Source: a virus (Duplodnaviria > Caudoviricetes). Taken from it: DNA of 58,779 nt. The stretch lies in the IMG/VR virus record IMGVR_UViG_3300022851_000005, positions 1 to 58,779 of that record. The stretch is one strand, 5' to 3'. Position 1 is the first letter of the stretch. Every line of letters starts with the position of its first letter. The notes under the pieces are model-generated. The model was not told the origin of the DNA, searched no databases, and worked only from the letters and a program-made list of their open reading frames with translations. Made by a program: the position numbers and the translations under genes. This document shows positions 4,550-48,576 of this stretch, one piece after another.

Positions 4550-4557
4550 ATAAACCT

Positions 4558-14046: not shown

Positions 14047-14244
14047 ATGAAAGTAAAAGATTTACTATGTGCATTAAAAGACATACATCCTGATATGCCT
14101 GTAGTACTGGAAGCAGATCATGGTCATACTACAATGCATAGTACTCACTGCGGTACTATAAGCGTGGAAGACTCTTCTGGATATTATATGGAACACTGTT
14201 ACGATGGTGACGGTAGTGAAGTATTCTTAATAGAAGGTTATTAA
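14047..14244 (+). CDS. Hypothetical protein, last gene of the + arm
   Basis: Strong RBS aaggagg before ATG 14047; MKVKDLL..L...PDMPV. Confidence 0.65.
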   Translation: MKVKDLLCALKDIHPDMPVVLEADHGHTTMHSTHCGTISVEDSSGYYMEHCYDGDGSEVFLIEGY

Positions 14245-14609
14245 TAACTCCAAGACCCTTTAAGCATATCGGCTTTGTCTAGGTGTAAAAACCTAGCAGA
14301 GCCTTTCTGATTCCATCCTATTCTTCTACAGCCTAAAGAGTACGCTATACTAGTTAACTCTATAACATCTACTCCTCTCACCTTTATATCAACTGCTAAG
14401 CCCGTAGTATGAGCACCGGGATAGTCTTTCTTTTTCTCTATAGGATGCTCAGGACACCTATAACCACTACTAATAACTATAGGCTTACCAAATGTAAACC
14501 TTACAGTATCTAACCACTCCATAAACTCTTGATTCCAAGCAGAGCCTCCACAATGCTGACAGAGCATTTCAGACTCTTTAAAGTATTTAGATTCTTTCAT
14601 ATTATCCAT
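14241..14609 (-). CDS. Peptidase M15A-family endolysin
   Basis: SSGYRCPEH, AHTTGLAVDI, FLHLD Zn ligands. Confidence 0.88.
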   Translation of the reverse strand: MDNMKESKYFKESEMLCQHCGGSAWNQEFMEWLDTVRFTFGKPIVISSGYRCPEHPIEKKKDYPGAHTTGLAVDIKVRGVDVIELTSIAYSLGCRRIGWNQKGSARFLHLDKADMLKGSWSY

Positions 14610-17600
14610 ACCTTCGAGCTAATGCCCTAGTTAAATTTGAACCTTTATTCACTTTTATTTCATTAGGGGCTTTATTTATACCTACATTATTAGTACCTTC
14701 AGTTAAACCACCTATAGGAGTTTGCACCTGCCCACCATAACGCTTCTGTAACCTAGCTTTGACATAGCCTCCTTTAGCCTTTTGGACTCTAGGATCACTA
14801 GACATCCCAGCAGCAGCCAACTTTATCTGCTCAGGATCAAAGACTATATAAGAACGTCCTGATCCTTTCTTACTAGAAGACTCTCCCATATTTTTATAAT
14901 CTATCCCATCAAATCCGAGTTCCTTAAGATATTCTTTAAAAGATCTATTAACTCTGTAGCTTTCCATCTCATTAGCAAGATAAGCACCAGCATTAGTATA
15001 TTCTTCCTGTATTGCTCCAGTAGCTTCTTCAAGTGACCCGGTATATATTTTATCCAATCTTTCAATATCTATAGGCCCTACCTCTTTTTCAATAGCCTCT
15101 AAGAAGCTATTAGGTTCTCTTTCTGTACCGAAAGCATCAAGATACTTATCTACAGTATCTAAGTCTACACCTTCGTCTAGAAGGCTATCTACTAGGTTAT
15201 CGTCCTGATCACCCATCAACTTCATATCTATATATTCAAATACCCCGTCCTCTAGATCTTCAGGCACATTAGCATTCTCCCAGAATGTAGGATCAGTATC
15301 TAATTGAGCTATTATCTTATCAGTACTTTTAGGCCCTTTAGAATTAATAGCCTTCCTCATATCCGCAATTATAGCTCTAGCATCCCAATCAGAAACGTCA
15401 TCATTAATTACTAAAGGCTTCTTAATATTAACATAGTATTCTGTTAGAGCTGATTCTGAAGCCGTACCCTTTCTTTCAAACTCTTTTAGTAAAGTAGACT
15501 CACTAGCTCTAGGTACTCCACTCTTATCAGCTACTCCTACATGTTTTAATAGTAGACTTTGAGGCTGGTTTCTATCAGACCCTACATGCGTACTTATCTC
15601 TCTAGGGTTAAACATAGAGATTAAGAAGTCCCTTGCAGGTTCTTGAGAAGTAGTTGCTCTGAATACAGACTTCTTGACTACAGAGTCCTTTAAGAATTCC
15701 TCTGGAGAAACCTTAGTATTTTTAGAGAATACTCTAGATCTAGGGATTGGTTTAATAGCATCCTCTACATCATCAATGAAATCTTTATCAAAACCATACT
15801 CATCTATAATAGCTTGGAACTCTGCTTTCTGTTCGTCTTTTAATATGAAGTCGTCAATCGTTTGAAGCACATCAGTTCTTATATCTGTTTTAGATTCTAA
15901 GTTATCTAAAGCTGCTCTACTTTGAGGTATAACATTCTTATATACATCTGCGTCGTCTAGTTGTCTCCATGAATCAGAGTACTCTGTATCGGATACTAAG
16001 CTCTTTGAAGTATATAGAGAACGGTTATCATCAGCATAGATATTAGATATATCTTCTTTAGTAGCTAAGGCTACCTTAGTACTTACAGGACTCTCTCCTT
16101 TAGATTGCTTAATAATATTTTGTACAATCAAATGAGTCTGATCTTTTTGAGGCTCTAACCCATCGCGTTTAATTATATCTTGAGCCTGCTTAGACTCTAT
16201 AGGTAGTATATCATCGTAGTTACCTGAGTCCTTATTACCTTTTTTCTCTAAGCGAGCTTTAGAGATACTCTTATTAGAATTCATATAAGATACGCGAGTA
16301 GGTACTAAGAAGTCATCTTCATTCAAAGCATTAACCGCTAAACTATCCCCCGCTCTTACTATAGCAGCTTCGTCTATAGAGTTCTTAAAATACTTCTGTA
16401 TTGGAGGTGCCATCTTTTTAACTATACCACCAAGGACATATTGCTGCCTTGTAACCCATCCACCTTCTCTGAATCCCATTCTAGATAAAGGATCTTCTCC
16501 TGCGTCTACTGAGTAAGGATGACCTGTTAACTTATTGATACGCTCAGAGGGATCAGAAGGGGCGTTAGGTACTGATACATAACCACCTTCTGCTTTAAGT
16601 ATTCGTTTATCCTCTTCATCTATATTTCCTTTTTCATCTACTGTATCTAGAGTTTCTAAACTAGTCGCTAACATTTGTCCGTAAGCGTCAAAAATCCCTG
16701 ATATAGTCTCATTTTCTTTACCCTCTACTTCATCATAATCATGACGTAGATCTGAGAACGTTTTACCAAACAAGTTCATTAGCATAGCATCGCTAGGTTC
16801 TTTAGGCATAAAGAGACCAGCCATAATATAAGAGGCCTTGTCTTCTCCTAACTGTTCTTCTAATTGTATATAAGCAGCACCACGCCCTATAAACATAGAG
16901 GCAGCATTAAATTGTTCGTATAGATCTTGCTGTAGCCTAAAATCCTCTTTATGACTGCCTATGTACTGCTCTATAATATCTCCACCAGTCTTCTCAAAAT
17001 TAGGCTGGTAACTTACTAGATCTTGAGACCTTACAACATAACTAGTCGTAGCATTCTTTAGGTTAAATTCAGGATCAACTTTAGTAAACTTAATACCTAA
17101 AAGGTTAGTCATTAACTCAGAAGGTATATCCTTAGTCTGATGGCCTCCTGTTCTGTGTACTTTACCTATAGATGCCTCGTATAGTCCTTTAGCACTCATA
17201 ATAGAACCGGGAGTTACAGAAGCTATAAGGTGGCCTACGGCATCAAAAGCCTGTTCAGATCTATCTTTACCGGGCTCAAAGATACCCTTACCGTTAGCAG
17301 TACGTCCTTCTGGATTAGTAGAAGCGTATATTAAGTCTGTCATAGCAGTAGTAATAATACTACCGGATAGGTAAGGGCTTAATACCTTTTCCATACCCCT
17401 TAAAGCAGCATCAGTTAAATATTCATCAAGATCTTTACCTTGCTTGTTACCGTCATAGATCTCTTGAGCAATAGCAATGAAAGGTTCTGTAATAGTAGAG
17501 TAAGAGTTAAGAAACTGTGTATCATTGGCCCATAGGTCTCCAGTCTCTGAGTCTCTATAGTAGATTCTTTCAGACTCTTTAGACCAAGGAGTCTCAGTAG

Positions 17601-20259
17601 TCTTATCAGCAGCTCTCTTCTCATCAGGAGACATACCATTAAGCGCGGCAGAACCATAACCTACCCCAGCCCATGTACCTGTAGAGCCTATATAGCCTCC
17701 TAGTCTTTTAAGTCCTCTATTACGTATAGTCTCATTACCACTATTAATCTCTTTAGAAGCCTGCTTAATAATATTAACAGATGTTCTTGTGATTTCAGCA
17801 GGGAAAGAAAAGAAGTTACCTACTGGTAATTCCTTTAGGGCTTTAATACCTTTAGGTACTCTATCGTAATTAGGGAATGTATTTTTTATTATCTCGGATG
17901 CTTCAGCCTCTAGTACCTCTATAGGCGTACCGGGATTAGCAGCCTTTAAAGTCTCTAGTTCATTATGGAACCCATGTATTTTAAAGAAGTCATCCGTAGC
18001 CATGTACGTCTGTTCTAGTACTCTATCAGTCTTTTGAACGGCTCCATATCTTTTAGATAGCTCATCTATCTTACCTATAAGAGCATCACCTTGAGCATTA
18101 ACAGCGGTATCCATAAGCTCTCGGAATTCACCTACATTCACAGATGTATTGATTATACCTAGACCTTGGTACTTTTCATACATAGTATTTAAAGCTTTAT
18201 CTCCTCCTTCAAGTATTTCATTCTTAAGCATACCTGTAATATGATCCCCTTCTTTAGAAAAAGGAGACATACCATTAGCCACGCCGAACTGAAGCCCGCC
18301 TAAATAGTTTCTTAATTGTGTAACATGACTATAAATTGTTTTAGTCTTTTGAGAGAAAGCTTTAGCAGCTAGAAATTTACGCCCTGCTGACTTCATAAAC
18401 TTCATCATACCGGGATCGTCACCACCTTCTCTTAGGTTCCAGATCTTACCTTCTTTGTTCTTAATAGCAGAGAGCATCTCTGGAGTAGTATAAAGACCAT
18501 CTAAGGCTGAGTTAGTACCCTCAATCTTAGCACTGAATATCTTATTATCTGGTACGCTCTTAGCATCAAAGATATATTTACCTCGGCCTAGTTTATTCAA
18601 TGTATCTAGAAATTTATAAGTCTCTGTTACTTGAGACATCTTCTGAACAGACAACATTATCTTTTCACTAGGTTCAGTAACTTCTCCGAGTAGTGCTCTT
18701 ACTGGATCATCAATATCCTTCTTACCTTGAAATATACCTTTATTAATTCTAGATACAGCATCAAAATAGTTTCTTTCTTCTTGAGTAGTTTCTCCTAAAA
18801 TATCGCCTACCATAGCCCTACCCATAGCTTCAGATTCTTCTAAAGTTACAGCTCCTGCTTGAGACTTAAAAGCTCTATCAGCAAAGTATCTCTCTGCGTC
18901 TCTTCTTACTTTATCATTAGGCTTATAATTAACGTCCTCAAAGAGTCTATAAGATCTTGTAGTATACTTGCCTATATTGTCTGCAATTATCGCTTTGGCT
19001 TTAGGGTCTACTACATTAGTTCCTAGTATAGTATTAGAAAGATCGTCGATAAGGTCACGGGCTTCTAAGACTTCAGAAGCTATATCCATATCTAGGTCAT
19101 GATACTTAGCAAAAGCCTCTACTCTGTCTTCAGGCTTAACTCCATCTAAAAACTTAATCCCTTCATTGAAAGCCGTATTGATATTAGCTATATTTTTCTC
19201 TACTAAATCAGTAGGGAGTTTATCCATAGCTATCTTCATGCGAGTAGCAATATGCTGAGCTTTCGTATCTAGTTTTCGTTTAGCAGCTTTAGCACCTTGA
19301 AAGGCATCATAGGCTTTAGGTTCTAAGTAACCTCTAGACGTAAAGATCTGTTGTTTAATTTTAGAAATAAATGAAGAGTTCTGGTTGATTATTTGAACAG
19401 GAGCTTCTTGCTTAAAAGAACGTTCTTGTTCTGTAAGCATTCTCCACGAACCTGTCTCTCGATCTTTAACGACCATAGGGCCTATAGGTAGCTCGTCTAC
19501 TTCTTTACCTGAAGGCATAACGGATTTGAGGTAATCATAGACACTACTTGCTTGTAACTTAGTACTCATCTCTGAGAAACTTTTACCCGTTGACCTTTTA
19601 ATCATACCAAACATTTTAGGAGCTGTTTGGAAAGCCGTCTCGAATGTACCTCCTAATATAGCCCCTTCAATAAGTAATTTAGCCCTCTTCTCAAGGATAC
19701 TATTATCCTCTTGAGCGCTTAGTGCCTCGAATAAAGGTTCTGCAAGAGAGTCCTGCATAAGAGGACTAACTATATTAAATATATTTTCATCAGAATCTGC
19801 ATACACTTGGTCTACTACTATACCTGAAGTAACACCAGCAACGAATGAGCCAGATCCTAAAGCTTTTAAGCCTGTAAAAGCAGCACCGCCACCTGTACCG
19901 AATCCAGCAGCCATAGGTATTAACTCACCAATAGTTGAAGCCCACGGAGAATCCTCGCCCCTTGCTCTAAAGAACTCGGCAGCCTCTTCTTGCTTATCAG
20001 ATATAGAGTTTAAGTAGTCCGAGATTTTATTCTCACCAGCTACTATTTCACCTGTATCAGCCACAGCCTCAAGAAGATTACCTCCTAAATCTGAGAAGCC
20101 TACAGCAACTCCTGTAGCAAAGTCCTCAAATGTTCCTGATTGTTGTGCTACTTGAGTTCTAGCTATCTTAGCTTTTAACTCTTCGTCTGTAACGTCTTCG
20201 GGAACATCCTTGTACATTTTCCCATCAATGGTCGCAGTACGCGTTTTAACTTCTTCCAT
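14602..20259 (-). CDS. Large internal virion/ejection protein with C-terminal ART-PolyVal-like ADP-ribosyltransferase domain
   Basis: 1885 aa, last structural gene; DDFFK...NTFPNY..VP..IKALK.LP.GNFFSFPAE core; C-terminal VFRAT, YVNIKKP, LGFDGIDYKN, YIVFDPEQIK. Confidence 0.75.
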   Translation of the reverse strand: MEEVKTRTATIDGKMYKDVPEDVTDEELKAKIARTQVAQQSGTFEDFATGVAVGFSDLGGNLLEAVADTGEIVAGENKISDYLNSISDKQEEAAEFFRARGEDSPWASTIGELIPMAAGFGTGGGAAFTGLKALGSGSFVAGVTSGIVVDQVYADSDENIFNIVSPLMQDSLAEPLFEALSAQEDNSILEKRAKLLIEGAILGGTFETAFQTAPKMFGMIKRSTGKSFSEMSTKLQASSVYDYLKSVMPSGKEVDELPIGPMVVKDRETGSWRMLTEQERSFKQEAPVQIINQNSSFISKIKQQIFTSRGYLEPKAYDAFQGAKAAKRKLDTKAQHIATRMKIAMDKLPTDLVEKNIANINTAFNEGIKFLDGVKPEDRVEAFAKYHDLDMDIASEVLEARDLIDDLSNTILGTNVVDPKAKAIIADNIGKYTTRSYRLFEDVNYKPNDKVRRDAERYFADRAFKSQAGAVTLEESEAMGRAMVGDILGETTQEERNYFDAVSRINKGIFQGKKDIDDPVRALLGEVTEPSEKIMLSVQKMSQVTETYKFLDTLNKLGRGKYIFDAKSVPDNKIFSAKIEGTNSALDGLYTTPEMLSAIKNKEGKIWNLREGGDDPGMMKFMKSAGRKFLAAKAFSQKTKTIYSHVTQLRNYLGGLQFGVANGMSPFSKEGDHITGMLKNEILEGGDKALNTMYEKYQGLGIINTSVNVGEFRELMDTAVNAQGDALIGKIDELSKRYGAVQKTDRVLEQTYMATDDFFKIHGFHNELETLKAANPGTPIEVLEAEASEIIKNTFPNYDRVPKGIKALKELPVGNFFSFPAEITRTSVNIIKQASKEINSGNETIRNRGLKRLGGYIGSTGTWAGVGYGSAALNGMSPDEKRAADKTTETPWSKESERIYYRDSETGDLWANDTQFLNSYSTITEPFIAIAQEIYDGNKQGKDLDEYLTDAALRGMEKVLSPYLSGSIITTAMTDLIYASTNPEGRTANGKGIFEPGKDRSEQAFDAVGHLIASVTPGSIMSAKGLYEASIGKVHRTGGHQTKDIPSELMTNLLGIKFTKVDPEFNLKNATTSYVVRSQDLVSYQPNFEKTGGDIIEQYIGSHKEDFRLQQDLYEQFNAASMFIGRGAAYIQLEEQLGEDKASYIMAGLFMPKEPSDAMLMNLFGKTFSDLRHDYDEVEGKENETISGIFDAYGQMLATSLETLDTVDEKGNIDEEDKRILKAEGGYVSVPNAPSDPSERINKLTGHPYSVDAGEDPLSRMGFREGGWVTRQQYVLGGIVKKMAPPIQKYFKNSIDEAAIVRAGDSLAVNALNEDDFLVPTRVSYMNSNKSISKARLEKKGNKDSGNYDDILPIESKQAQDIIKRDGLEPQKDQTHLIVQNIIKQSKGESPVSTKVALATKEDISNIYADDNRSLYTSKSLVSDTEYSDSWRQLDDADVYKNVIPQSRAALDNLESKTDIRTDVLQTIDDFILKDEQKAEFQAIIDEYGFDKDFIDDVEDAIKPIPRSRVFSKNTKVSPEEFLKDSVVKKSVFRATTSQEPARDFLISMFNPREISTHVGSDRNQPQSLLLKHVGVADKSGVPRASESTLLKEFERKGTASESALTEYYVNIKKPLVINDDVSDWDARAIIADMRKAINSKGPKSTDKIIAQLDTDPTFWENANVPEDLEDGVFEYIDMKLMGDQDDNLVDSLLDEGVDLDTVDKYLDAFGTEREPNSFLEAIEKEVGPIDIERLDKIYTGSLEEATGAIQEEYTNAGAYLANEMESYRVNRSFKEYLKELGFDGIDYKNMGESSSKKGSGRSYIVFDPEQIKLAAAGMSSDPRVQKAKGGYVKARLQKRYGGQVQTPIGGLTEGTNNVGINKAPNEIKVNKGSNLTRALARRYG

Positions 20260-21563: not shown

Positions 21564-22164
21564 CTGGCTTCTCCATTAATGATGCTGGTTCTTCTCCACC
21601 TTCTACAGGGGATTCAGCAGATTGACTAGGTTTCTCCATAAGACTAGCTACAGAAGAGTTTTCTATCTTCTTTACTATCTCAGGACTAATAGCTGTCTTA
21701 GGTATTGTTTTAGACTTCGGAGTCTTCTTAGCGATCTCTTGAGATAAGGCATTAGATTTATCTTCCATGTCTTCTTCATCAGGCTCATTATCTATCTTAT
21801 AATCTATCCCTGCTCTCTCTGCTAAAGCCATAAGCATATAGGCTGTAGGCTCTACAAGCATTAGCATTAGATCAGGATTCCATTTACCTGCTGAGAACCC
21901 TGCTGATAATAGGTTCTGAGTAACGTCCATTATAGTAGCTTCGCTTGCATCAATTAATTGCATTATAGGAACGAAGTTCTCTTCTTCTGTTAACTTAACA
22001 AATATTTCCTCTTGAGCCTTTTTAGCACTAGTGAACTTAGGAGCTTGTTCAAAAGCTCGGGGTTGCTCTGGGTCGTGTGTAAGGCTCTCTCCGGGAATAG
22101 GACGATCCATAGTGGACATCTCTTTCGCCATAATAGCTTGGTCGTCATTTTGCATTTCCGACAT
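21556..22164 (-). CDS. Conserved-type structural-module hypothetical protein
   Basis: PIPGESLT..P..FEQAP, GKWNPDL motifs; coupled to neighbours. Confidence 0.65.
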   Translation of the reverse strand: MSEMQNDDQAIMAKEMSTMDRPIPGESLTHDPEQPRAFEQAPKFTSAKKAQEEIFVKLTEEENFVPIMQLIDASEATIMDVTQNLLSAGFSAGKWNPDLMLMLVEPTAYMLMALAERAGIDYKIDNEPDEEDMEDKSNALSQEIAKKTPKSKTIPKTAISPEIVKKIENSSVASLMEKPSQSAESPVEGGEEPASLMEKPVG

Positions 22165-23222
22165 TATATTCTAAGCTTCCCTGTAGGTGATAAGCCTCTT
22201 TGTAGTGTGTACTGATAAGCATCAGTAGGCTGGTATTGACTCATTTGCATTCTGTTGAAGGTTGTAGCCCCAAAGTCATAACCACTTCTAGTATAATAGT
22301 CTTGAGCCATCTGTATAGAAGCTGGTGAACTATAAGAAGCAACGCCTCTAGCTTTACGATCTTCAATCTCTTCAGGAGTACCTTGTAAGTAGTTATTTAG
22401 GGCGTTTTTTCCAGTAGTGAATATAGCATCCCTAGCTTCCTCTCCTAAATTAAACTTAGTACCAAATACCTCTATATCTTGATTAAGGAAATCAAGCACT
22501 CCTTTACCTTTAGTTTGGGACTCAGCGTACTCTTTAGCTAAGTCATTAGATATCTCTGTCATAGACTTGAACCTATCTACTGGTTCTATCTTACCAAGAA
22601 AATCTTCTCCTGCCATACCTGAAGACTCGAAGTCCTTTACTCCTTTAAGTTTACTAGGCTGTACTGCATCAATCCCCGGAACATCTATATCTACTACATC
22701 GCTTACTGTAGCTACAGGCTTAGGGACTAATGAGGCAGCGAACTCTTTATTTGTTAATTTAAAGGGATCTAGGACTTCGGAGAAACCTTTAGCAGTATCT
22801 CCCATCCAGCCCTGAAAAGCTTCTGTTAATGTACCCTCAGTAGCGACTTTAAGTCCTACTTTCTCTAGAACTTTTCCCCCTACTTTAGATATAAAGCTTG
22901 AGATACCCTCTGTAACACTAGAGAACACATTACCTACAGTGCTTGCAAACTTACCAGCAGTAGATAGTATATTCCCTACTCCCCTAGCAAGAGTACCCAT
23001 AATACCTGTACCTGTTGCTCCTAATAATCCGCCTGTTAAGGCTCCAAAGCCTTTAGCAAGGAGACCCCCTACTCCGGGCATAATAAACATTAGACCTATT
23101 TGGCCTACAATGCCTAGCTTACCTACAACTTTACCTATTTTACCGGCTATTTTTTTAATACCTGAACCGATCTTTTTAAAGACTTTTTTAATACCTTTAA
23201 ATACTTTAGAAAAGAATCCCAA
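22164..23222 (-). CDS. Putative ejection/pilot protein with cationic amphipathic N-terminus
   Basis: TTG start with RBS gaggt; MGFFSKVFKGIKKVFKKIG followed by Gly-rich hydrophobic segment. Confidence 0.65.
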   Translation of the reverse strand: MGFFSKVFKGIKKVFKKIGSGIKKIAGKIGKVVGKLGIVGQIGLMFIMPGVGGLLAKGFGALTGGLLGATGTGIMGTLARGVGNILSTAGKFASTVGNVFSSVTEGISSFISKVGGKVLEKVGLKVATEGTLTEAFQGWMGDTAKGFSEVLDPFKLTNKEFAASLVPKPVATVSDVVDIDVPGIDAVQPSKLKGVKDFESSGMAGEDFLGKIEPVDRFKSMTEISNDLAKEYAESQTKGKGVLDFLNQDIEVFGTKFNLGEEARDAIFTTGKNALNNYLQGTPEEIEDRKARGVASYSSPASIQMAQDYYTRSGYDFGATTFNRMQMSQYQPTDAYQYTLQRGLSPTGKLRI

Positions 23223-26660: not shown

Positions 26661-26910
26661 TTTCAGTCTGAGCTGCTAAATGAGCCTGATAAGCCGCGAC
26701 AACTTCGTCAGTATGCACAGCCGAGCAGATTACCTGAACCTCTGCTGACTCATTGCTGTAGTCGTCGCCTGCTGTGACAACGTGCCTATGGTATCCAGAA
26801 GATAACTCCGCGCCATCTTCGAGAACCTTGGTGCAGGTTCTAATCTGTACGCTTTTAAACTCACCACAAATCTCAATCTTGTCTTCAGATACTACTTTTT
26901 CAAGTGCCAT
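26650..26910 (-). CDS. Tail-fibre-associated small protein
   Basis: DKIE...VQIRT.T...DG.ELS..YHRHVV motif recalled from genes that follow tail fibres in marine phages. Confidence 0.65.
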   Translation of the reverse strand: MALEKVVSEDKIEICGEFKSVQIRTCTKVLEDGAELSSGYHRHVVTAGDDYSNESAEVQVICSAVHTDEVVAAYQAHLAAQTENES

Positions 26911-27410
26911 TACGCGGCCTCCTTCTTATATGTTTTATTCAAAACCACATTGCTAATTGTGGCAGATGTCGTGTTATACATTTTAGCAATAGCTGTTTGT
27001 GTCATACCATCTTGATAGAGAACTCGCATCTTCTCCGCTTCTTCAAACGAAAAGTGCCTGCTTTTTAATCCTTGTTGCCTAGCAACCTCTCGTTGTTTTT
27101 CTGATGGACTACGAAGTCCGGTAGCGAAAGCGTGCTTATGGTTTTCAGAGTGATTGCACCACTCAAGGTTTGCCACTCGATTGTCTAACTTGTCACCGTT
27201 AATGTGGTTAACACAGTCCTTGCTTTCGTGCTTATTACAAAACGCTAATGCGACCAAACGGTGAATCGATTGTGTTTTATTGTGAAGTCTTACTGACAGG
27301 TATCCGCTTCCCGTTACGGCTGGTTTTAACCACCTGTTAGTCTTGTAACTCCATACGCGCCCATCCTCGCTGACCGCGTATGCCTCATCGATGTTTTTAA
27401 GTTCTGCCAT
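26910..27410 (-). CDS. HNH homing endonuclease with NUMOD4-like N-terminus and C-terminal HTH
   Basis: YAVSEDGRVWS, IHRLVALAF, VNHINGDKLDNRVANLEW. Confidence 0.9.
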   Translation of the reverse strand: MAELKNIDEAYAVSEDGRVWSYKTNRWLKPAVTGSGYLSVRLHNKTQSIHRLVALAFCNKHESKDCVNHINGDKLDNRVANLEWCNHSENHKHAFATGLRSPSEKQREVARQQGLKSRHFSFEEAEKMRVLYQDGMTQTAIAKMYNTTSATISNVVLNKTYKKEAA

Positions 27411-31226: not shown

Positions 31227-32216
31227 TTAGGCGTCGGTAGTGATAGTCCAAAAGATCTTAACGAGTGCATTGTGTCGAAGTACTTTACGTCCGTAGACAT
31301 GAAGACCTCGGCATAAATCACCGAAAGAATTCTGGTGCCGAAGTGTTTCGACATTAAGGATCGTACCTGCTGTTGATACAGCGGACATATGACCTGCTAA
31401 GGCTACGTCTGCATTAGAACCAGCAGTAATGTTGTTGGACTTGTACATCTTGAAGCCGCGAAGCAAACCAGATGTTACTAGACCATTACGCAAAGAACCT
31501 TGACCAGCATTGTAATCAACACTCATCAGCTTCGAAGCGCTTTGAGACAAGATCTCATAGAACTGAGGCTTAGCAACAAACCAGCGATCTTCCTCTGGTA
31601 CGTTGTTGTCGTCTAGTTCACGAGCTGCTCTAGCAATTACGTCTAGAGGATCACTTGAATCAGCAGCAGTAGTGTCAATGTTTACAGCTTCAGTCGCACC
31701 TCCATCAATAGTGGCAAGAGAACCAGCAGTAGCGTCGTCAGCACCAATTACAGTACTACCATTACCGGCAGTTGCTTGTGTGCTAATGTACGATAGGACG
31801 TTAGTGTCCATCTGGTCTTTAAGAGCGTAAGCTGCGGCACTGGCTGCAACTTCCTTGAAGTTAACATGGGACATACGTGTTTCAATATCATCTACGATGA
31901 ACTTAAAAGCGCGTGCTTGGTCAACAACGAGGGTTAACTCTTGGTCTGACAAAAGTGTTTGAGTTGTATCATCACCACGAGTGTAGTCGTAGGTAGTGAT
32001 AGTTGGTTCTTTGATGATGTTTACAGTATCACCGAATGATGCGATTTCGCCCGAATAATCAGTGTTAGTAATACCTTCTACTACCGAAGCCTTTCGAAAA
32101 AAGTTTTGAACCTTTTTAGAATAAACCGAAGGTAGAAAGAAAGTATTAGTCTGACCACTGATTGCGGAGTCAAAATTCGAAATACTCGGGGTACTGGCTT
32201 CTTCAAATTGAGCCAT
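31227..32216 (-). CDS. Major capsid protein
   Basis: FLP.VYS, ITNTDYSGEI..FGDTVNI, LD..NVP..R, GLHVYGRKVLR; follows scaffold. Confidence 0.92.
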   Translation of the reverse strand: MAQFEEASTPSISNFDSAISGQTNTFFLPSVYSKKVQNFFRKASVVEGITNTDYSGEIASFGDTVNIIKEPTITTYDYTRGDDTTQTLLSDQELTLVVDQARAFKFIVDDIETRMSHVNFKEVAASAAAYALKDQMDTNVLSYISTQATAGNGSTVIGADDATAGSLATIDGGATEAVNIDTTAADSSDPLDVIARAARELDDNNVPEEDRWFVAKPQFYEILSQSASKLMSVDYNAGQGSLRNGLVTSGLLRGFKMYKSNNITAGSNADVALAGHMSAVSTAGTILNVETLRHQNSFGDLCRGLHVYGRKVLRHNALVKIFWTITTDA

Positions 32217-32239: not shown

Positions 32240-33049
32240 TTAACCTCTCACAAAAAGGCCTTCTGCAATCGCTATGTCAATCTCCTCTTCATATCTTTCG
32301 AATTGAGCAGGACTTAACTTATTGATTTCAGATTCTCTCCAAACTTTCTTTTCAGGTCTAGTATCAGATCCTGAGTTACGAGTAGGAAGTAAGGTTGCTG
32401 CTTCCTCATCTAGATTTGGACGGCCAGTGTCTTGAACGGTTCCTGTAACGATACCCTTCTCAGATTTGTATAGGCTAATAGCTTTAGCGGCTTTACTACC
32501 ATCATACGGATTCTTATAAATCCAATCCTGAATAAACTCTTCTTGAGCGTTGGCCCAATCGTGAAAATTCTGATCAACCTTAATGGAATCAAAATCAGGA
32601 TGGATACTTCTGATCTCAGCTTGAGCTTCTCTAGCAAGGATTTTACTCTCACGTTCGTCGAGTCGCTGGACTTTATCATTAGTATCTGAAGTCCTGTTAT
32701 GGATCTCAGTCTCTAAGACTGCATAGATCTCAGGGTTCTTTTCTTTGAACTCTGCAATCTCTTCAGCCGTCTTAGGCGGTTGGTATACTGGTACTTGGGC
32801 TTGAGCTTCTGCTTTCACCTGCTTGAGTTCCTGTTGAAGATCACGTAGTTTGTTGTCGTGATGCTTCTTCAGTTCATCATACCGTACTTTGTAAGGGTCG
32901 TCCTTAGCATTTAGATTGGCCGAGTTATCGGGGTCTACTTGCTTAGGGCTCGTAGGGTTAAAAAGCGAATCAGAGCTTACAAACTCTTCTTCATCTACGT
33001 TCTGCCATTCCTTACTTCTATTATAAGGGTTAGCTACTTCGTCGTTCAT
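32240..33049 (-). CDS. Scaffolding protein
   Basis: YK.RY.ELKKH coiled coil, HPDF, FHDW, C-terminal EI..AI.EG; between portal and capsid. Confidence 0.8.
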   Translation of the reverse strand: MNDEVANPYNRSKEWQNVDEEEFVSSDSLFNPTSPKQVDPDNSANLNAKDDPYKVRYDELKKHHDNKLRDLQQELKQVKAEAQAQVPVYQPPKTAEEIAEFKEKNPEIYAVLETEIHNRTSDTNDKVQRLDERESKILAREAQAEIRSIHPDFDSIKVDQNFHDWANAQEEFIQDWIYKNPYDGSKAAKAISLYKSEKGIVTGTVQDTGRPNLDEEAATLLPTRNSGSDTRPEKKVWRESEINKLSPAQFERYEEEIDIAIAEGLFVRG

Positions 33050-33167: not shown

Positions 33168-33533
33168 CTAAGCCATAGATGTCCCAGAAGCTTTCGCTTC
33201 ATTATGCATCCGTTCTAAGTTCTCAACGCCTATCACCTGTACGGCTTCAGCGCTAAAAACGAATTCTCCATCAGAAAGCCTAGCAGGTATAGAATCACTT
33301 GTTCCGTCTCCTGGGCCTTCTATTGCACCGTCCTTAGAGACCTCTATAGCTCTCATAACAACGGTTTCAAATATCTGTTCTAATTTAGGATCATTAGATA
33401 TAATGTTCATCAAGTACATCTGGGAGTCTTGATCTAAATTCTCATCAAGGAAGTAATCAATAGCTTGGTCTTCAATCGTACTATCAGGCTCAATAGCCAT
33501 CTTCGTCTGGGGGTTTGATTGCATTTCTGACAT
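33168..33533 (-). CDS. Small protein with GPGDGTSDSIPARLSDGEFV domain
   Basis: Motif usually seen embedded in tape-measure-like virion proteins; here stand-alone. Confidence 0.7.
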   Translation of the reverse strand: MSEMQSNPQTKMAIEPDSTIEDQAIDYFLDENLDQDSQMYLMNIISNDPKLEQIFETVVMRAIEVSKDGAIEGPGDGTSDSIPARLSDGEFVFSAEAVQVIGVENLERMHNEAKASGTSMA

Positions 33534-33723
33534 TAACTTCTATATCCTCTAACTTACCCAGAAAAACTAGGGCTGCTTGGATCGACAGGAACTCTTGGTG
33601 AGATGTTGCCGTCACCAGCTTCTGATGCTCCAGATGCTTGAGCTTCTGTGCCCATTCCATTAGGTTGTCCCATGCCGGGTTGTTGACCAGCGGGGCCAGC
33701 CCCTGCGCCTCCTTGAGTTCCAT
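33490..33723 (-). CDS. Small helical protein overprinted on the portal 3' end
   Basis: RBS aggag 7 nt before ATG; LVNNPAWD.L...H.KL...QA pattern. Confidence 0.65.
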   Translation of the reverse strand: MELKEAQGLAPLVNNPAWDNLMEWAQKLKHLEHQKLVTATSHQEFLSIQAALVFLGKLEDIEVNVRNAIKPPDEDGY

Positions 33724-35713
33724 TCTGTGCTCCTAAAACTGCTTGAGCTATTGCTATCTCCTCAGGCGTATTTAATAATTCTCTAGGGTCTAAATCTATA
33801 CTATGAGCAAACTCTTTAATTAGAGTAGACATCCTTACATACGGAGCTACTGCTGGGTTAGCTGCTGTCTGCATGAACATAGTGAGTCTTTGAGACCTTA
33901 CTTCTTTCTGCATAAGAGAAGAGGTACCTAAAGCTCTAACTTCTAGATCCTGCTTAATTCCTAATTTACCTCTAAAGAACTGCTGATTCCATCTAAAGAG
34001 ATCAACGCCTAAAGGTTTAAATAAGAAGTCATCTGTATTTTTAACAATAGTTTTTATGTTTAATGAAGCAGCTCCCATTAGCATAGACATGCCAGATGCT
34101 GTTCTAGTCATAGATCCTACGCCTGTATCACCATGAGAGTAGCTAGGGATACCTGTCTGTTCATCAGCTAGTTGTCGTGCTTTATCAAACATAGCTAGGT
34201 TTTCATTTGATGTATTAGGAAACTTAATTCCCATTACTGCTGGCTTATCTGAGCCTGCTTGTCGTCTGAATACTTTGCCGGGATATATTTTAGTAGATTG
34301 ACCTGCTACTAAAGCTGTCTCGTCGATATCAAATATCATTGAACCACTAAGCGCTAGGTTATCTATAGCCATACGCATATGGCCGTTCATTAAGGCTTGA
34401 GAGTCTGACATGTTTTCAGCTACTCCTATACCCCAAATGCTATAAGGATTTCTTTCGTAAGGGCAAGCATGATAAGGAAGTCTTGCAGGGATGAAAGGGT
34501 TGACTACACCTCTTAACATCTGATCGCCACATATCCATACGTTTACTTGTACTTCGTCTAAATCATCTACAGAGTCAGGCACCTTAATACCCATCTCTCT
34601 AGCTGCATCAGCATCAATAGTTCCCCAATACTCTAAGACTTCAAAGCGATTAGATCCTATAGAGGTTGTATCAGAGGAGTCATCAGCTCGTATAGTATAC
34701 TCAAAGTCCTGTACTTCGTAGTTAGGGCCGTCTTGTAATACTTTCCTTAGAGCCTCTTTATCAAAATTAGGAAGACGAACTAGTCCTCTTACCTCTGAAC
34801 GAGTCATCTTTCTTCTTTGTATTAGATAATCACAATCTTCAATAGTAGTACAATGAGGATCTGGATACATATCCCAACAAGAAACAAATTCTATTCTTGG
34901 TACTCGTACATTAACTGGCTGATAGGTTCTAACCCCCTCTTCATCTTCTACCCAGTTATGTAGTACTTTATTATAATTGAAAGGGCCTTTAATCCAGCCA
35001 GTACCTAATAGGCACATTTCAAATATAGTACTTCTAATTTCTGTCTCACCATTAGATTCTTGTATCTGATCGTGAATAAGCTTTTGAAGCTGTCTAGCTG
35101 CTTGCTTAGCTAGGTTTACTTCTGGTACATCAGGAGAGGGTGAAGCACCTTCTTTTAATACAGGGCCTTCAGGACTAGAGTATTTCTCTTCAGAGTCTTT
35201 AAGGAACTTAGTAGCACTTCTAAACGTAGCACCGGGAGCTAATGTTTTACCATCTCCATTGTAGCCTACATCGAAAGGATTCTCTACAATATCTTCTTGG
35301 GTATCTTCTGGTAACTCTACTTGAGTCTCACCATTAGTCTTTAGATGAGCACGCTCTGAAGCCCCTTCAGGAACCTCTGTCTCTTGTATTCCTATAGGAA
35401 ACTGACCAGTACCAAATAGAACATCTATTAGCATACCATAAGCAGCTAATACTTTAGTCTTAGTAACCTTAATGAATACTCTAGACTTTTCATGTTCTCT
35501 AAACTTTACATTCTTTCCGTACTCACCACGGTAATTCTGGTAAGCACTAAGCATATGACGCTCTTTGACCTCTCGGCCTCGCGCTGCTTCTTCGAACCTA
35601 GACTTTATCTCGCCTATTAGAGTCCTCTCAACCTGCTCATCTAACTTTAATTGATGAGATTCTTGATCATCTTCTGGTTGGAATATAAAACTGGAATCTA
35701 CTAAATTAGACAT
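33554..35713 (-). CDS. Portal protein
   Basis: GTG.IKGP, WDMYPDP, PY..WGIGVAE, DN..LS, RTASGMSML; follows terminase. Confidence 0.9.
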   Translation of the reverse strand: MSNLVDSSFIFQPEDDQESHQLKLDEQVERTLIGEIKSRFEEAARGREVKERHMLSAYQNYRGEYGKNVKFREHEKSRVFIKVTKTKVLAAYGMLIDVLFGTGQFPIGIQETEVPEGASERAHLKTNGETQVELPEDTQEDIVENPFDVGYNGDGKTLAPGATFRSATKFLKDSEEKYSSPEGPVLKEGASPSPDVPEVNLAKQAARQLQKLIHDQIQESNGETEIRSTIFEMCLLGTGWIKGPFNYNKVLHNWVEDEEGVRTYQPVNVRVPRIEFVSCWDMYPDPHCTTIEDCDYLIQRRKMTRSEVRGLVRLPNFDKEALRKVLQDGPNYEVQDFEYTIRADDSSDTTSIGSNRFEVLEYWGTIDADAAREMGIKVPDSVDDLDEVQVNVWICGDQMLRGVVNPFIPARLPYHACPYERNPYSIWGIGVAENMSDSQALMNGHMRMAIDNLALSGSMIFDIDETALVAGQSTKIYPGKVFRRQAGSDKPAVMGIKFPNTSNENLAMFDKARQLADEQTGIPSYSHGDTGVGSMTRTASGMSMLMGAASLNIKTIVKNTDDFLFKPLGVDLFRWNQQFFRGKLGIKQDLEVRALGTSSLMQKEVRSQRLTMFMQTAANPAVAPYVRMSTLIKEFAHSIDLDPRELLNTPEEIAIAQAVLGAQNGTQGGAGAGPAGQQPGMGQPNGMGTEAQASGASEAGDGNISPRVPVDPSSPSFSG

Positions 35714-42790: not shown

Positions 42791-43111
42791 ATGAGTCTTA
42801 AAAAGAGTTTAATAGAAGTTAAAAGTTTAATAGATACCCCTGAAAAGTGGTGTAAATATAAATATGCTAGGGATAGCAGTGGGATACCTGTAAGTTATAA
42901 ATCTCCTAGAGCTTGTAGTTTCTGTATCTTAGGGGCTGTACGTAGAGTAAGAATTGAAGAGCAGCTTGACGTCTTAAGAGAGCTTAGAAAGTTTATACCT
43001 AATAAACAAACTAATAGAAGGAATTTAAAGTTAAATATTTTTAATGATAATGCTACCCATAATGAGGTTATGGCTTTATTTGATAGAGCAATAAAACTAA
43101 CGCCTGAATAA
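42791..43111 (+). CDS. DUF6197-like protein, paralog 1
   Basis: LI..PEKW...ARD..G...SP.ACSFCILGA...FND..THNEVMALFDRAIK. Confidence 0.7.
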   Translation: MSLKKSLIEVKSLIDTPEKWCKYKYARDSSGIPVSYKSPRACSFCILGAVRRVRIEEQLDVLRELRKFIPNKQTNRRNLKLNIFNDNATHNEVMALFDRAIKLTPE

Positions 43112-43132
43112 TTACCCCTGCGATTATAGGGG

Positions 43133-43161
43133 TTGACACGAGAGACCAACTGTGATGTTCT
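43133..43161 (+). promoter_or_regulatory. Promoter with variant -10 (TGTTCT)
   Basis: TTGACA-17-TGTTCT; shares ccaactgtg(a/g)tgttctgtgg with 45552. Confidence 0.55.
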
Positions 43162-43209
43162 GTGGTCTCCTCTTCACCACAATCTATATTTATATAAAGG
43201 CTAACGCAT

Positions 43210-43455
43210 ATGATTCAGTTTCAAGGTAAAGTACTTTCCGAGACTAAAGGTAAATATGAATCCTTTTACTACCAAGATGGACTTCTTAAGCTACAAGTTA
43301 TACAGACTAAGGAGTGTAAAAATCCCCTTAAAGCCTGTGAAAAAGCTGTAATGAGTATTCAAGGCATTAAAGCCAATGTGTTCGACTACAATGGCGGTAC
43401 ATCCTTTGGAGGTAATATAGTAGCCTTCGTTCAAGAGTTTACAGAGGTTAAATGA
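43210..43455 (+). CDS. Hypothetical protein
   Basis: RBS aaagg, downstream of promoter. Confidence 0.6.
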   Translation: MIQFQGKVLSETKGKYESFYYQDGLLKLQVIQTKECKNPLKACEKAVMSIQGIKANVFDYNGGTSFGGNIVAFVQEFTEVK

Positions 43456-43456
43456 T

Positions 43457-43777
43457 ATGAATCCCTTTAAAAAGTTAGTAATTAAAAATATATTGATTAA
43501 AGCTAAAGCGGTTATAGCTAACCCGGATAATTGGATTCAGAACTCTATGGCTCAGGGTATAGATGGGTGGCAGACTAGTGTTTCAGATCCTCAAGCCTGT
43601 AAGTTCTGTAGTGTAGGAGCAATCTATAAGGTAAATGGCTCGATGAATAGTGTTACAGAGTTAGCACGTATTGCTTTAGAGAAAAATACCGGAGGTCTTT
43701 CTTTAGATATGTTTAACGATACCCATACACATCAAGAAGTAATGGCTTTATTTGATACGGCGATTAAAAATGCTTAA
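43457..43777 (+). CDS. DUF6197-like protein, paralog 2
   Basis: KAK..I.NPDNW...ACKFCSVGA...FNDTHTHQEVMALFD.AIK. Confidence 0.7.
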   Translation: MNPFKKLVIKNILIKAKAVIANPDNWIQNSMAQGIDGWQTSVSDPQACKFCSVGAIYKVNGSMNSVTELARIALEKNTGGLSLDMFNDTHTHQEVMALFDTAIKNA

Positions 43778-43988
43778 ATACTATGCAGGAATAGGACACA
43801 GAACGAGAAAGAGAATTATATGTATATAGAGATTTTACTTAAAGAGGCTAAAAAGGAAAATTTAGACTTTTACAAGCTTTACGCTAGTAGAAAGTTTGGT
43901 TTACCTTATGAAGAGGTCACTCCTATATTAAGAAGGAAAGCTAAAGAGTCTTTACACCACTACTTTTATAGTAATTAAGGAGAAATAC

Positions 43989-44303
43989 ATGGACTTAGCA
44001 GTTAAAGTTATGTTAGAAAAAGCTAAAAATCTAATACGTAATCCTGATAATTGGACTACAGAAAAATATGCTAGAGATGCTAATGGAGTAAGTGTTAATC
44101 CTAAAAGCCCTGAAGCCTGTAAATTTTGTGTTCTAGGGGCTATTATGAATATACAGGGAGTGAATTGTGATGACCTTGATTATGTTTCCCGTATTTTATA
44201 TAAAGCAACAGGTTATCTTAATATATCTTCTTTCAACGACAGCCATACACATAAACAAGTACTAGAGTTATTAGATAAAGCAATTAAAATAAATGGAGAC
44301 TAA
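43989..44303 (+). CDS. DUF6197-like protein, paralog 3
   Basis: KAK.LI.NPDNW..KYARD..G..SPEACKFCVLGA...FNDSHTH..VL.LLDKAIK. Confidence 0.7.
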   Translation: MDLAVKVMLEKAKNLIRNPDNWTTEKYARDANGVSVNPKSPEACKFCVLGAIMNIQGVNCDDLDYVSRILYKATGYLNISSFNDSHTHKQVLELLDKAIKINGD

Positions 44304-47178: not shown

Positions 47179-48015
47179 ATGACCTACTTAAATCCTTATA
47201 TCCTAAGACGTTTAAAACTAGGAAGAACTAGTACACCAGCTATAGCGGCCTTATCTACTACAGGTATTATAAGTCGTAGATATAGTCATCAGATACCCCC
47301 TGAATGTGATCTTGTTATTCGATGGGGCTGTACAGCTAACATTAGACAACAGAATGTAATTAATACTGCTCATGCTATTCATGAAGTTAATGATAAAAGC
47401 TTATTTAGAGTTAAACTAAATGAAGCTGAATTATGTCCTGAGACTTGGAACGCTTCTAATAGACATGGTATCGTATTACCTTGTATTGTAAGACCTCAGC
47501 ACCATAGTAGAGGACTTAGGTTATATTATTGTATGAACCAAGTACAACTACAAACAGCTATTGAGCGTTGCGGTGAAGGTTGGTATGCTTCCGAGTATAT
47601 CCCTAAAGTCGCAGAGTATAGAGTCTTTGTATCTCAAGGTCGATGCATTGCAGTAGCTAAAAAGAATCCAGAGAACTCTGAAGCAATCGCTTGGAACGTA
47701 GCACAAGGAGGAGATTTTGAAAATGTCAGATGGGACGCATGGCCCCTTAAAGCCGTCAAGGTCTCTATTGAAGCATTTAACCTTTCCTCATTGGACTTTG
47801 GTGGAGTCGATATTATGGTGGGTAGTAATGGGAATTGTTATGTACTCGAAATTAACAGCGCCCCTAGTCTAACATCCCCATATAGACAGGAGTGCATGAC
47901 TAAAGCTTTAGACTATATGATTACTAATGGTAAAGAAAGGATACCTTTAATAGAAGAAAGGGGAGGATATCTTAAGTTTATTCACCCTTGTATTAATGAG
48001 AGGGCTAGAGTATGA
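47179..48015 (+). CDS. ATP-grasp (RimK-like) peptide ligase
   Basis: IRWG, NDK, IVRP..HSRG, EYI...EYRVFV, LDFGGVD, VLEINSAPSL. Confidence 0.88.
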   Translation: MTYLNPYILRRLKLGRTSTPAIAALSTTGIISRRYSHQIPPECDLVIRWGCTANIRQQNVINTAHAIHEVNDKSLFRVKLNEAELCPETWNASNRHGIVLPCIVRPQHHSRGLRLYYCMNQVQLQTAIERCGEGWYASEYIPKVAEYRVFVSQGRCIAVAKKNPENSEAIAWNVAQGGDFENVRWDAWPLKAVKVSIEAFNLSSLDFGGVDIMVGSNGNCYVLEINSAPSLTSPYRQECMTKALDYMITNGKERIPLIEERGGYLKFIHPCINERARV

Positions 48016-48230
48016 AAATTATAAAGGAACCCAATAAACCTATAGCTCGCTATCAAAACTTTATAACAGGAGATCATATTACTTTGTATAATAGTAGAAA
48101 TGTTTATAATATAATTATAGGACAAGAAGAAGGAATAGTACAATCAACGTTGGAATGTTTTAATATTATAAGTGCTTTAGAGATTTTTAGTAATCAAGTA
48201 AACAAACTAATAGGACTAAAACATGCATAA
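48012..48230 (+). CDS. Hypothetical protein
   Basis: ATGA coupling within the cluster. Confidence 0.55.
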   Translation: MKIIKEPNKPIARYQNFITGDHITLYNSRNVYNIIIGQEEGIVQSTLECFNIISALEIFSNQVNKLIGLKHA

Positions 48231-48576
48231 ATTAGCAGTGTATGGTACATTAAGGTCTAAAGATTCTTGGTCGGGCGTTTTAAGTACTCAAATATATTTA
48301 GGAAAAGGACTTCTCCCTAACAATATAGCTATTCATGATTTAGGAGGTTATCCTGCTGTACGTATTATTAAAGGAGTAGTAGATAAGCCTACAATCTGCG
48401 AAGTCTATGAAATAGATGATGTAGCTCTTGCTCGATGCGATCAAATAGAAGGCCACCCTAATTTTTATGAAAGACGTTTAGTAGATATTGATGGTTATGG
48501 TGATTGTCTTGTATATTTTTTAGATGATTGTGAGTCTTATCCTCGTATTATTTCAGGAGATTGGTTTGATAAATAA
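48223..48576 (+). CDS. Gamma-glutamylcyclotransferase (AIG2-like)
   Basis: VYGTLR, LGGYPA, EVY, D.IEGHP.FYER. Confidence 0.88.
   Translation: MHKLAVYGTLRSKDSWSGVLSTQIYLGKGLLPNNIAIHDLGGYPAVRIIKGVVDKPTICEVYEIDDVALARCDQIEGHPNFYERRLVDIDGYGDCLVYFLDDCESYPRIISGDWFDK

Follow-up and report, generated by a model that had tools for sequence, protein, structure and literature searches.

The window analysed here, the complete 58,779-bp virus record IMGVR_UViG_3300022851_000005 with direct terminal repeats, carries its structural block on the minus strand, from ~38.5 kb down to 14.2 kb. The head genes are arranged in the order large terminase, a 76-aa ORF, an SU10-type portal (719 aa; 33554..35713, minus strand; SU10_portal in Pfam with E=3e-27, phrog_332 and phrog_1216), a 121-aa gene (33168..33533, minus strand), a 269-aa coiled-coil gene (32240..33049, minus strand) and the major capsid gene (31227..32216, minus strand; Phage_capsid_2 and phrog_267). 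These are followed by an SU10-type adaptor, a 538-aa protein, a 441-aa fibre-like protein, an HNH endonuclease and three small ORFs, and the block closes with five large ORFs (764, 352, 202, 434 and 1885 aa) and a 122-aa M15_3 cell-wall peptidase (14241..14609), the only peptidase found among the ORFs scanned. We call the coiled-coil gene scaffold-like from its position only, its sole match being phrog_13678, a family of unknown function (E=1.6e-50). Neither a tail-tube nor a tape-measure gene was found in the Pfam and PHROG scans of the record's ORFs, and since the portal and the adaptor are of the SU10 type, we consider the genome podovirus-like. In agreement with an earlier reading of the window, made from the sequence alone (hereafter the sequence-only reading), which had seen no canonical prohead protease, we detected none among the 54 ORFs of the record that were compared with the PHROGs, or among the 19 of those 54 ORFs, from the packaging and structural block, that were compared with Pfam. 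As the head module is scaffold-based and lacks a protease, a maturation enzyme is not expected there.

The 121-aa gene itself is exactly as the sequence-only reading had described it in its ORF and its motif, and it is located between the portal and the scaffold-like genes. It lies downstream of the portal gene, co-oriented with it and separated from it by a gap of 20 nt, and its product includes the stretch KDGAIEGPGDGTSDSIPARLSDGEFVFSAEAV quoted in that reading. The start codon is ambiguous: Met1 of the ATG ORF has a GAGGA 12 nt upstream, while a 100% identical database copy of 110 aa (P0004) begins at Met12 (position 33500), and the starts of five aligned relatives (P0005, P0006, P0010, P0018 and P0029) are aligned with Met12 as well, so that the protein may have either 121 or 110 residues. 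AlphaFold2 predicts three helices in residues 17-66 (33336..33485, minus strand), namely 17-32, 35-47 and 49-66, with pLDDT values of 79-91 over the residue blocks from 21 to 60; the family consensus spans this region, which is conserved in the portal-adjacent proteins. The helices are followed by what we term the GEFV module, in residues 66-112 (33198..33338, minus strand), of which a six-frame profile search detected a single copy in the 58,779-bp record.

The portal-adjacent protein family

We identified homologues of the 121-aa protein in 188 phage records by a tblastn search, the best of them being those of the Pelagibacter phages HTVC103P, HTVC104P and HTVC115P. A word-indexed search returned 124 homologues of 66-212 aa, and an exhaustive search returned 4989 cluster representatives at E<=1e-3, 948 of them at E<=1e-10. 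Judged by such sequence comparisons, the 121-aa gene is a real gene under selection. All 80 IMG/VR loci that we collected have their genes on a single strand in the order terL-portal-X-scaffold-MCP-adaptor, within the limits of each fragment, the portal being seen upstream of the homologue in 62 loci, a scaffold-like gene downstream in 75 and the MCP in 75; where no portal is seen upstream, the fragment is cut by the contig end. Fifteen further loci from metagenome contigs have the same arrangement (portal upstream in 9 of the 15). The homologues in the 80 loci are 43-53% identical to the 121-aa protein over residues ~16-114, and the 71 complete copies among them vary in length from 188 to 837 aa. 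Conservation is confined to the C-terminal ~100 aa, with residues 15-115 finding a single match close to the C-terminal end of proteins some 200-700 aa long, and a Pfam scan of the extensions of the 30 longest homologues gave no domain above threshold. The minimal forms comprise the 121-aa protein together with a small number of relatives whose length is 103-133 aa; several of these short forms are distinct (62-81% identity), and the motif is whole in them.

The closest cultured homologue is gp79 of HTVC103P, a hypothetical protein of 431 aa whose gene occupies the equivalent position, flanked by gp80 (the portal) and gp78. The two proteins align over residues 12-116 of the 121-aa protein at 44% identity, and the core, GPG.GTSDSIPA.LSDGEFVF, is identical in both. 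However, gp79 has an N-terminal extension of ~310 residues with several A-x-GG-L-M motifs and a longer tail, which the 121-aa protein lacks. The two proteins have in common the ~100-residue unit formed by the helical domain and the module, as well as the slot between the portal and the scaffold genes, which places the 121-aa protein in the gp79-like family. On this sequence evidence, the family is one of variable length found in marine podoviruses of the HTVC103P/HMO-2011 type, and the 121-aa protein is a 'core-only' member of it. The literature on these phages that we consulted mentions neither the gene nor any proteomics.

The GEFV module in tape-measure proteins

The module of the 121-aa protein comprises the segment SKDGAIE, followed by the core GPGDGTSDSIPARLSDGEFV and by a helix that includes G102 and L106. 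The invariant columns of the alignment are G69, G73, G75, D80, I82-E90, V92, G102 and L106, and the flanks vary. Seven of the 14 PHROG matches of the protein are tape-measure families (best E=4.7e-9), including 6090, 3547 and 5448; these matches cover residues 57-119 of the 121-aa protein and are internal to the families. When we built a profile from the module copies of 31 giant proteins, defined as those of more than 1000 aa among the best 150 of the 4989 representatives, the 121-aa protein scored 70.7 bits against it. By sequence score, the motif thus resembles tape-measure proteins far more closely than chance would allow. A profile that does not depend on a regular expression recovered 124 module copies, with at least one in each of the 31 giants, and the Asp, the Gly and the Glu are conserved in 98%, 99% and 97% of them, respectively. 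The consensus of 93 copies is A.GG.v.GPGtGTSDSIPAmLSNGEFV, continuing as ..A.AV...G...L, which bears out the statement in the sequence-only reading that the motif follows A-x-GG-x-V in cis in tape measures. According to Pfam scans of six of the giants, the copies are located between SLT, lysozyme, M23, NlpC/P60, LysM, HAD-phosphatase and ADP-ribosyltransferase (ART) domains, and a tape-measure domain (TMP_3 or PhageMin_Tail) is present in three of the six. In tape measures of long-tailed phages the module goes with GG motifs of the type [FYKR]-x-x-GG-x-h, which we refer to as joints, and module and joints together punctuate the cargo domains.

The 121-aa protein has the core motif of these copies, G-P-G-x-G-x-S-D-x-I-P-A-x-L-S-x-G-E-x-V followed by A..(V)...G...L. 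It does not have the canonical joint, A-x-G-G-x-V, six residues before GPG: the cis joint reads S-K-D-G-A-I and keeps only the second Gly and the hydrophobic residue, whereas in the giants A is conserved at 71% and GG at 78-80% at these positions. Nor is the module embedded in a long tape measure with a TMP_3, PhageMin_Tail or TMP_2 domain, a coiled coil and cargo.

A profile search of the PDB sequences matched the TMP of mycobacteriophage Douge (gp16), with two copies at 960-1002 and 1413-1450 (whole-sequence E=1.6e-13), the TMP of Pseudomonas phage JBD30 (gp46), with one copy at 1019-1058 (E=1.5e-5), and lambda gpH at residues 754-776. According to the structure papers that we consulted, the Douge TMP is modelled only at 1658-1699, with the GEFV region absent from the model, the JBD30 TMP only in its last 33 residues, and residues ~690-817 are missing from the structure of lambda gpHC. 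In phage DSL-LC04 a 759-aa protein annotated as 'tape measure' ends in the module and likewise combines it with [FYKR]-x-x-GG-x-h joints; its gene adjoins that of a 'DNA transfer protein', among 'DNA transfer' and 'stabilization' genes. There is no Pfam family over the module, Tape_meas_lam_C of lambda gpH stopping at residue 701, and the 121-aa protein had no match at E<=1 in Pfam or NCBIfam. In the giants, module positions +5/+8 showed no pattern of covariation with the cis-joint residues. Full-text literature searches with strings from the module gave nothing about phages among the matches listed, and a search on autoproteolysis of tape measures gave no paper on their self-cleavage among those listed; the literature searched yielded no description of the module or the joints.

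With an alignment of 24 sequences, AlphaFold2 gave pLDDT values below 50 for residues 67-87 of the 121-aa protein, and in a model made with 141 sequences the motif had about 54; the flanking helices were confident in both cases. The motif, being disordered in these models, probably folds on a partner. Foldseek comparison of the monomer model with BFVD and the PDB gave nothing at E<=0.001. In the ESM Atlas, the nearest clusters carry either no name or the label 'tape measure protein family'; the sole lead bearing a Pfam name, crAss cargo protein 1 (score 0.80), was rejected as being at chance level.

GG joints in portal-adjacent and putative internal proteins and in cleaved tape measures

In the portal-adjacent family the free joints occur in the context R-x-x-K-[AQ]-E-G-G-x-[ML]-..-P-P-E, as derived from 207 proteins (205 instances upstream and 249 downstream). 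Relative to the Asp of SDSIPA, they are most frequent about 100 residues upstream and at 38 and 47 residues downstream. The upstream joint (about 100 residues) is present in 53 and the downstream joint (30-55 residues) in 56 of the 71 complete homologues, and joints are wholly missing in only two. The 121-aa protein has no free flanking joint: it begins past the site of the upstream one, lacks the tail of 80-110 residues and ends 41 residues past the Asp, its final SGTSMA aligning with the ..DGGLM.. of its relatives. In one clade of ~150-aa relatives, comprising 17 clusters, ...EGG-x-V(Y) lies no more than 12 residues from the C-terminus and forms the very end of the protein in 15 of the 17, so that a cut at this site would free almost nothing. 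A terminal joint as a general feature was rejected, since it occurs in the last 12 residues of 20 of 265 module proteins, compared with 5.8% of all 12-residue windows; 17 of these 20 proteins belong to the one clade.

The 1885-aa ORF (14602..20259, minus strand) encodes a putative internal or ejected virion protein, with a match to phrog_7348 at residues 1753-1838 and a weak match to ART-PolyVal (E=1.2e-5, below the Pfam cut-off). The GG motifs that the sequence-only reading had noticed in it are indeed present, as RILKAEGGYV (1225), FREGGWV (1266), YVLGGIV (1277), RVQKAKGGYV (1830) and KRYGGQV (1842). The pattern GG.[VILM] occurs 8 times, compared with 2.6 expected from 5000 shuffles (P=0.004), and GG motifs in a charged context occur 4 times, compared with 0.46 expected (P=0.0014). 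The first three joints lie in a 'joint island' at residues 1214-1281 (16417..16620, minus strand), which reads RILKAEGGYV-SVP..P.DPSERINKLTGHPY and then FREGGWV and YVLGGIV. Its pattern, R.....GG.V.VP..P.EP.ERI...TG.PY, is among the few stretches of the protein kept in four complete relatives, and R15, G21, G22, V24, V26, R36, T41, G42, P44 and Y45 are invariant in the alignment of the five sequences. When a profile of the island was searched against 2161 ORFs and proteins, only the record's own 1885-aa protein was significant, indicating that the ERI..TG.PY part is absent from the portal-adjacent family. In one relative (G005) the gene stops 47 residues past the joint and a new gene begins there. 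The other two joints, RVQKAKGGYV and KRYGGQV, lie near the C-terminus, at residues 1823-1847 (14719..14793, minus strand); the big proteins of G002, G003 and G005 have a near-C-terminal joint too, and the 1772-aa protein of G003 ends in FAEGGLVTNS.

Each of the six complete genomes (this record and the relatives G001-G005) encodes one portal-adjacent module protein, together with a large internal protein that has one joint or more. The portal-adjacent proteins of the five relatives have joints of their own in three cases (L003, L016 and L066) and none in two (L007 and L070). Since the big proteins of all five relatives have joints, also beside portal-adjacent proteins with cis joints, those of the 1885-aa protein are not a compensation peculiar to this phage. 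The sequence-only reading had supposed that the two halves of the tape-measure motif are split here between the 1885-aa and the 121-aa proteins. This stands insofar as the 121-aa protein lacks flanking joints and the 1885-aa protein has joints of the R..KAEGGYV type; however, the module is not cleanly split, since its own upstream half persists in a degenerate form (S-K-D-G-A-I-E-GPG), and the GG joints of the big internal proteins are shared by all five relatives. In an AlphaFold2 model of a 207-aa relative with joints on both sides (P0060; alignment of 141 rows), the joints and the module had low confidence and did not dock, and a complex prediction of the 121-aa protein (24 rows) with residues 1205-1300 of the 1885-aa protein (5 rows) gave a score of 0.00 in two runs without controls, a value that carries no weight either way.

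The tape measures of T5 and lambda mature by cutting, pb2 into pb2* and pb2C and gpH into gpH* and gpHC. The T5 tape measure pb2 contains the sequence NSFVPRAEGGMMYPG, and according to Linares et al. (PMC10038345) it is cut after R1127; the cleavage, R|AEGGMM, thus separates positions -3 and -2 of a joint. In lambda gpH, residues 733-783 read FATGG..GEFVF..YATGGYV and lie in a glycine-rich region; the lambda paper reports that a fragment of ~14 kDa is cut from this region and that neither the exact cut site nor the catalyst is known. Our six-frame profile search, which found one module in the present record, found half a module in lambda gpH, namely the GEFV half and not the SD.IPA part, and none in the T5 region of 72-121 kb. 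As pb2 is nonetheless cut, the T5 cleavage does not need the module, or at any rate not a recognisable one.

Possible roles of the 121-aa protein

The sequence-only reading had raised the possibility that the 121-aa protein recognises or cleaves the GG motifs in trans, and had noted that maturation proteases are often encoded at this position. The positional remark is sound: in lambda the slot from portal to scaffold is occupied by the S49 protease gene C, and in T5 the head protease gene is placed between portal and capsid. A protease was not borne out, as the protein has no protease family or fold and no conserved Ser/Lys pair, and its motif is disordered in the models. We rejected a prohead protease of the S49, S78, S77/U9 or ClpP-like type for want of a family match (Pfam, NCBIfam or PHROG), a folded catalytic domain or a fold match. 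The motif also has what we take to be a resemblance to the LexA/signal-peptidase-type Ser-Lys peptidases (S24/S26). Such a peptidase was likewise rejected, given that there is no Pfam match at E<=1 and that the Lys at +16, present in 92% of the family, is Glu in the 121-aa protein; in P0014 and P0018, Ser is replaced by Asp at -1 and by Ala at +1, on either side of the invariant Asp. Protease activity therefore finds no support in the sequence comparisons or the predicted structures. On the other hand, the D, the S/T and the G-E are near-invariant across very distant phages, and this pattern is explained no less well by a catalytic or metal site than by a pairing strand.

The interpretation that we favour, with somewhat less than even confidence, is that the 121-aa protein is a small, non-enzymatic virion accessory, a core-only family member encoded between the portal and the scaffold genes and belonging to the DNA-delivery set. 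In general terms, it is probably a minor DNA-delivery protein, and it shows no sign of being a protease. Besides the synteny and the pattern of conservation, this reading draws on the seven tape-measure families among the 14 PHROG matches, the location of the giants' copies amid cargo domains, the neighbours of the module gene in DSL-LC04, the absence of the GEFV region from the models of solved virions and the scaffold-based, protease-free head module. Counting against it are the place of the gene among the head genes, some 8 kb away from those presumed to encode ejected proteins, the lack of a Foldseek match at E<=0.001, the near-invariance of the D, S/T and G-E, and the fact that the T5 joint is a real cleavage site. 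We infer that the protein would be built into the procapsid at the portal vertex together with the internal proteins (764, 352, 202, 434 and 1885 aa), and that at infection it might leave with them through the portal channel. The low pLDDT of the motif with both 24 and 141 sequences, next to confident flanking helices, suggests a partner-dependent element: the GEFV stretch would be unfolded alone and would become ordered only by pairing with a partner strand, which might be a like module in an oligomer or, on a protein packaged alongside it, a GG joint. The protein resembles, by its size and content, the small C-terminal fragments pb2C and gpHC that T5 and lambda cut from their tape measures, although it is separately encoded.

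It is considerably less probable that the protein acts in assembly only, helping the portal or the internal proteins to enter the procapsid in a scaffold- or chaperone-like manner, and is absent from mature particles. Such a factor would suit the slot between portal and scaffold, conserved in all loci, the co-orientation with the portal gene at a distance of 20 nt, and the small, acidic and helical character of the protein. However, the module occurs elsewhere in tape measures, which stay in the virion and are ejected; relatives reach 837 aa through long extensions, which would be unusual for a chaperone; and the Foldseek matches of the monomer model to scaffold proteins are not significant (E about 4-7).

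We consider it improbable that the protein is a trans-acting processing factor, whose module would bind the 1885-aa protein at its [KR]|A-x-GG-x-h joints and either cut these or present them for cutting, making it the catalyst of tape-measure maturation in trans. The T5 cut described above, R|AEGGMM, is in the same register as the R..K-A-E-GG of the family and the KAEGGYV and KAKGGYV of the 1885-aa protein, and lambda gpH, for which neither cut site nor catalyst is known according to the lambda paper, has FATGG...GEFVF in its glycine-rich region. The near-invariance of the D, S/T and G-E would also be in keeping with such a factor, a degenerate cis joint would free the module for other substrates, and the gene boundary in G005 falls just past the joint island. 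Against these points, there is no protease family or fold; pb2 is cut in T5, where the late region (72-121 kb) has no detectable module; and lambda has the GEFV half only. In addition, a general base is not conserved, K+16 being E in the 121-aa protein and S-1/S+1 being D/A in P0014 and P0018; a cut in the 17-cluster clade that ends at EGG-x-V(Y), 15 clusters exactly so, would release almost nothing; and the big proteins of the relatives keep their joints even where the portal-adjacent protein has its own. We give still less credence to a more general form of the idea, in which the GEFV module would be the recognition or catalytic unit for the cutting of tape-measure and ejection proteins at [KRFY]-x-x-GG joints, and the 121-aa protein its stand-alone trans version acting on K|AEGGYV and K|AKGGYV. 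Finally, it is very improbable that the protein is a decaying, functionless remnant truncated from a longer family member, for although both flanking joints and the 80-110-residue tail are missing and the final SGTSMA aligns with the relatives' ..DGGLM.. joint, several short forms (103-133 aa, 62-81% identity) keep the entire motif, the frame is open with a plausible start, and the core is identical to the invariant columns of the family.

What is new here is a stand-alone, portal-adjacent and joint-less form of the module in an abundant group of marine podoviruses. The module is very widespread (4989 representatives at E<=1e-3), yet it has no Pfam family. With the catalyst of lambda tape-measure cutting stated in the lambda paper as not known, a protein of 110-121 aa that is nearly a single module is the simplest test object, on which joint binding, oligomerisation and cutting are testable. 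If the module were a processing unit, this ~13-kDa protein would be convenient for studying how phages cut injected polyproteins; if it were a mere structural clasp, the result would do little beyond helping to annotate a 'hypothetical protein' that is very common.

Among known systems, the prohead proteases (lambda gpC of family S49 and the T5 head protease) share with the 121-aa gene the gene position alone; there is no sequence or fold similarity, and the conserved part of the 121-aa protein is disordered. Minor head proteins of the SPP1 gp7 / Mu F type are encoded just past the portal and carried in the head, and their 'polyvalent' forms bear cargo. The likeness to them consists in a minor protein gene following the portal gene, with no evidence of homology; the lack of any Pfam match at E<=1 means that the 121-aa protein has no Phage_Mu_F match. 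In the tape measures, which are 1000-5300 aa long and have TMP_3 or PhageMin_Tail domains as well as enzyme cargo, the module is internal and preceded by a canonical joint six residues upstream, whereas in the 121-aa protein the module stands alone, in a podovirus head module and behind a degenerate cis joint. T5 pb2C (92 aa) and lambda gpHC (about 120-130 aa) are of about the size of the 121-aa protein. They end in a coiled coil that binds the hub (TMP_C in T5), whereas the 121-aa protein has no TMP_C match and, without a hub-binding end, does not belong to their group; its N-terminus is a helical domain and not a joint. The likeness is therefore one of size and of the GEFV element only, and the module is not detectable in T5 and only half present in lambda. 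Nevertheless, pb2C and gpHC are the closest working analogy to the 121-aa protein, in the sense of a likeness in how it might work and not of membership.

The C-terminal end of the large internal protein and its counterparts

Residues 1753-1838 of the 1885-aa protein, the putative internal or ejected virion protein carrying GG joints ([FYKR]-x-x-GG-x-h motifs), are encoded at window positions 14746-15003 (- strand) and match phrog_7348 (E=3.7e-14) and, weakly, ART-PolyVal, the latter with an E-value of 1.2e-5 and a score of 26.5 bits, which is under the Pfam cut-off of 31.2. The stretch matching these residues is kept in three of the complete relative genomes (G001, G002 and G005) and could be an injected enzyme domain with joints on either side. 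Immediately downstream of the 1885-aa gene lies the gene (14241-14609, - strand) for a 122-aa protein matching Peptidase_M15_3 (E=2.1e-14) and phrog_894 ('endolysin'), which is either the endolysin or a virion-borne cell-wall peptidase.

In G005 (L097, 8962-15173), the large internal protein is split over two genes encoding 1186 and 883 aa, and the break falls 47 residues past the joint island, which is internal (residues 1214-1281) in the 1885-aa protein of the window. The C-terminal tail of the 883-aa protein resembles, by eye only, a 96-aa ORF (...KSHVV..IRFG..SAAYWAD..KW) inserted at 4455-4745 of locus L100, with the gene encoding the GEFV module on one side and the scaffold gene on the other. 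The module homologues of L100-L104 and P0014-P0036 form a clade of proteins of about 150 aa that end in ...ERIQKLEGGYV(Y), a tail similar to ERINKLTGHPY in the 1885-aa protein's joint island but too short for a homology test.

Other genes in and outside the structural block

A 352-aa protein (22164-23222, - strand) matches the tape-measure family phrog_58 over its first 142 residues (E=1.1e-6), which include the glycine-zipper stretches GVGGLLA and LTGGLLG, and may be a membrane-inserting ejection protein. An HNH endonuclease gene (26910-27410, - strand; phrog_59, E=7.4e-49) also lies within the structural block.

The remaining genes noted here are on the + strand. Sulfotransferase-like and sialyltransferase-like genes (5455-6565; phrog_3347 and phrog_4603) are located within the replication block. 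Since three adjoining ORFs of about 105 aa each (42791-44303) all match phrog_762, of unknown function, they make up a small paralogue array. A cluster of the peptide-ligase/amidotransferase type (47179-53605) comprises S6-glutaminyl-transferase-like, gamma-glutamyl cyclotransferase, glutamine amidotransferase, COOH-NH2 ligase and amidoligase genes.

The stretch after the cut joint in T5 pb2

Linares et al. (PMC10038345) use the term 'metallopeptidase motif' for residues 1128-1150 of pb2, the tape measure of phage T5 (L084), a stretch that directly follows the cut joint (AEGGMMYPGVSYQMGEHGTEVV). Profile searches returned no GEFV module match in residues 1128-1150. The 'metallopeptidase motif' occupies the same place as the GEFV module does in other tape measures, and it may be a diverged copy of this module.
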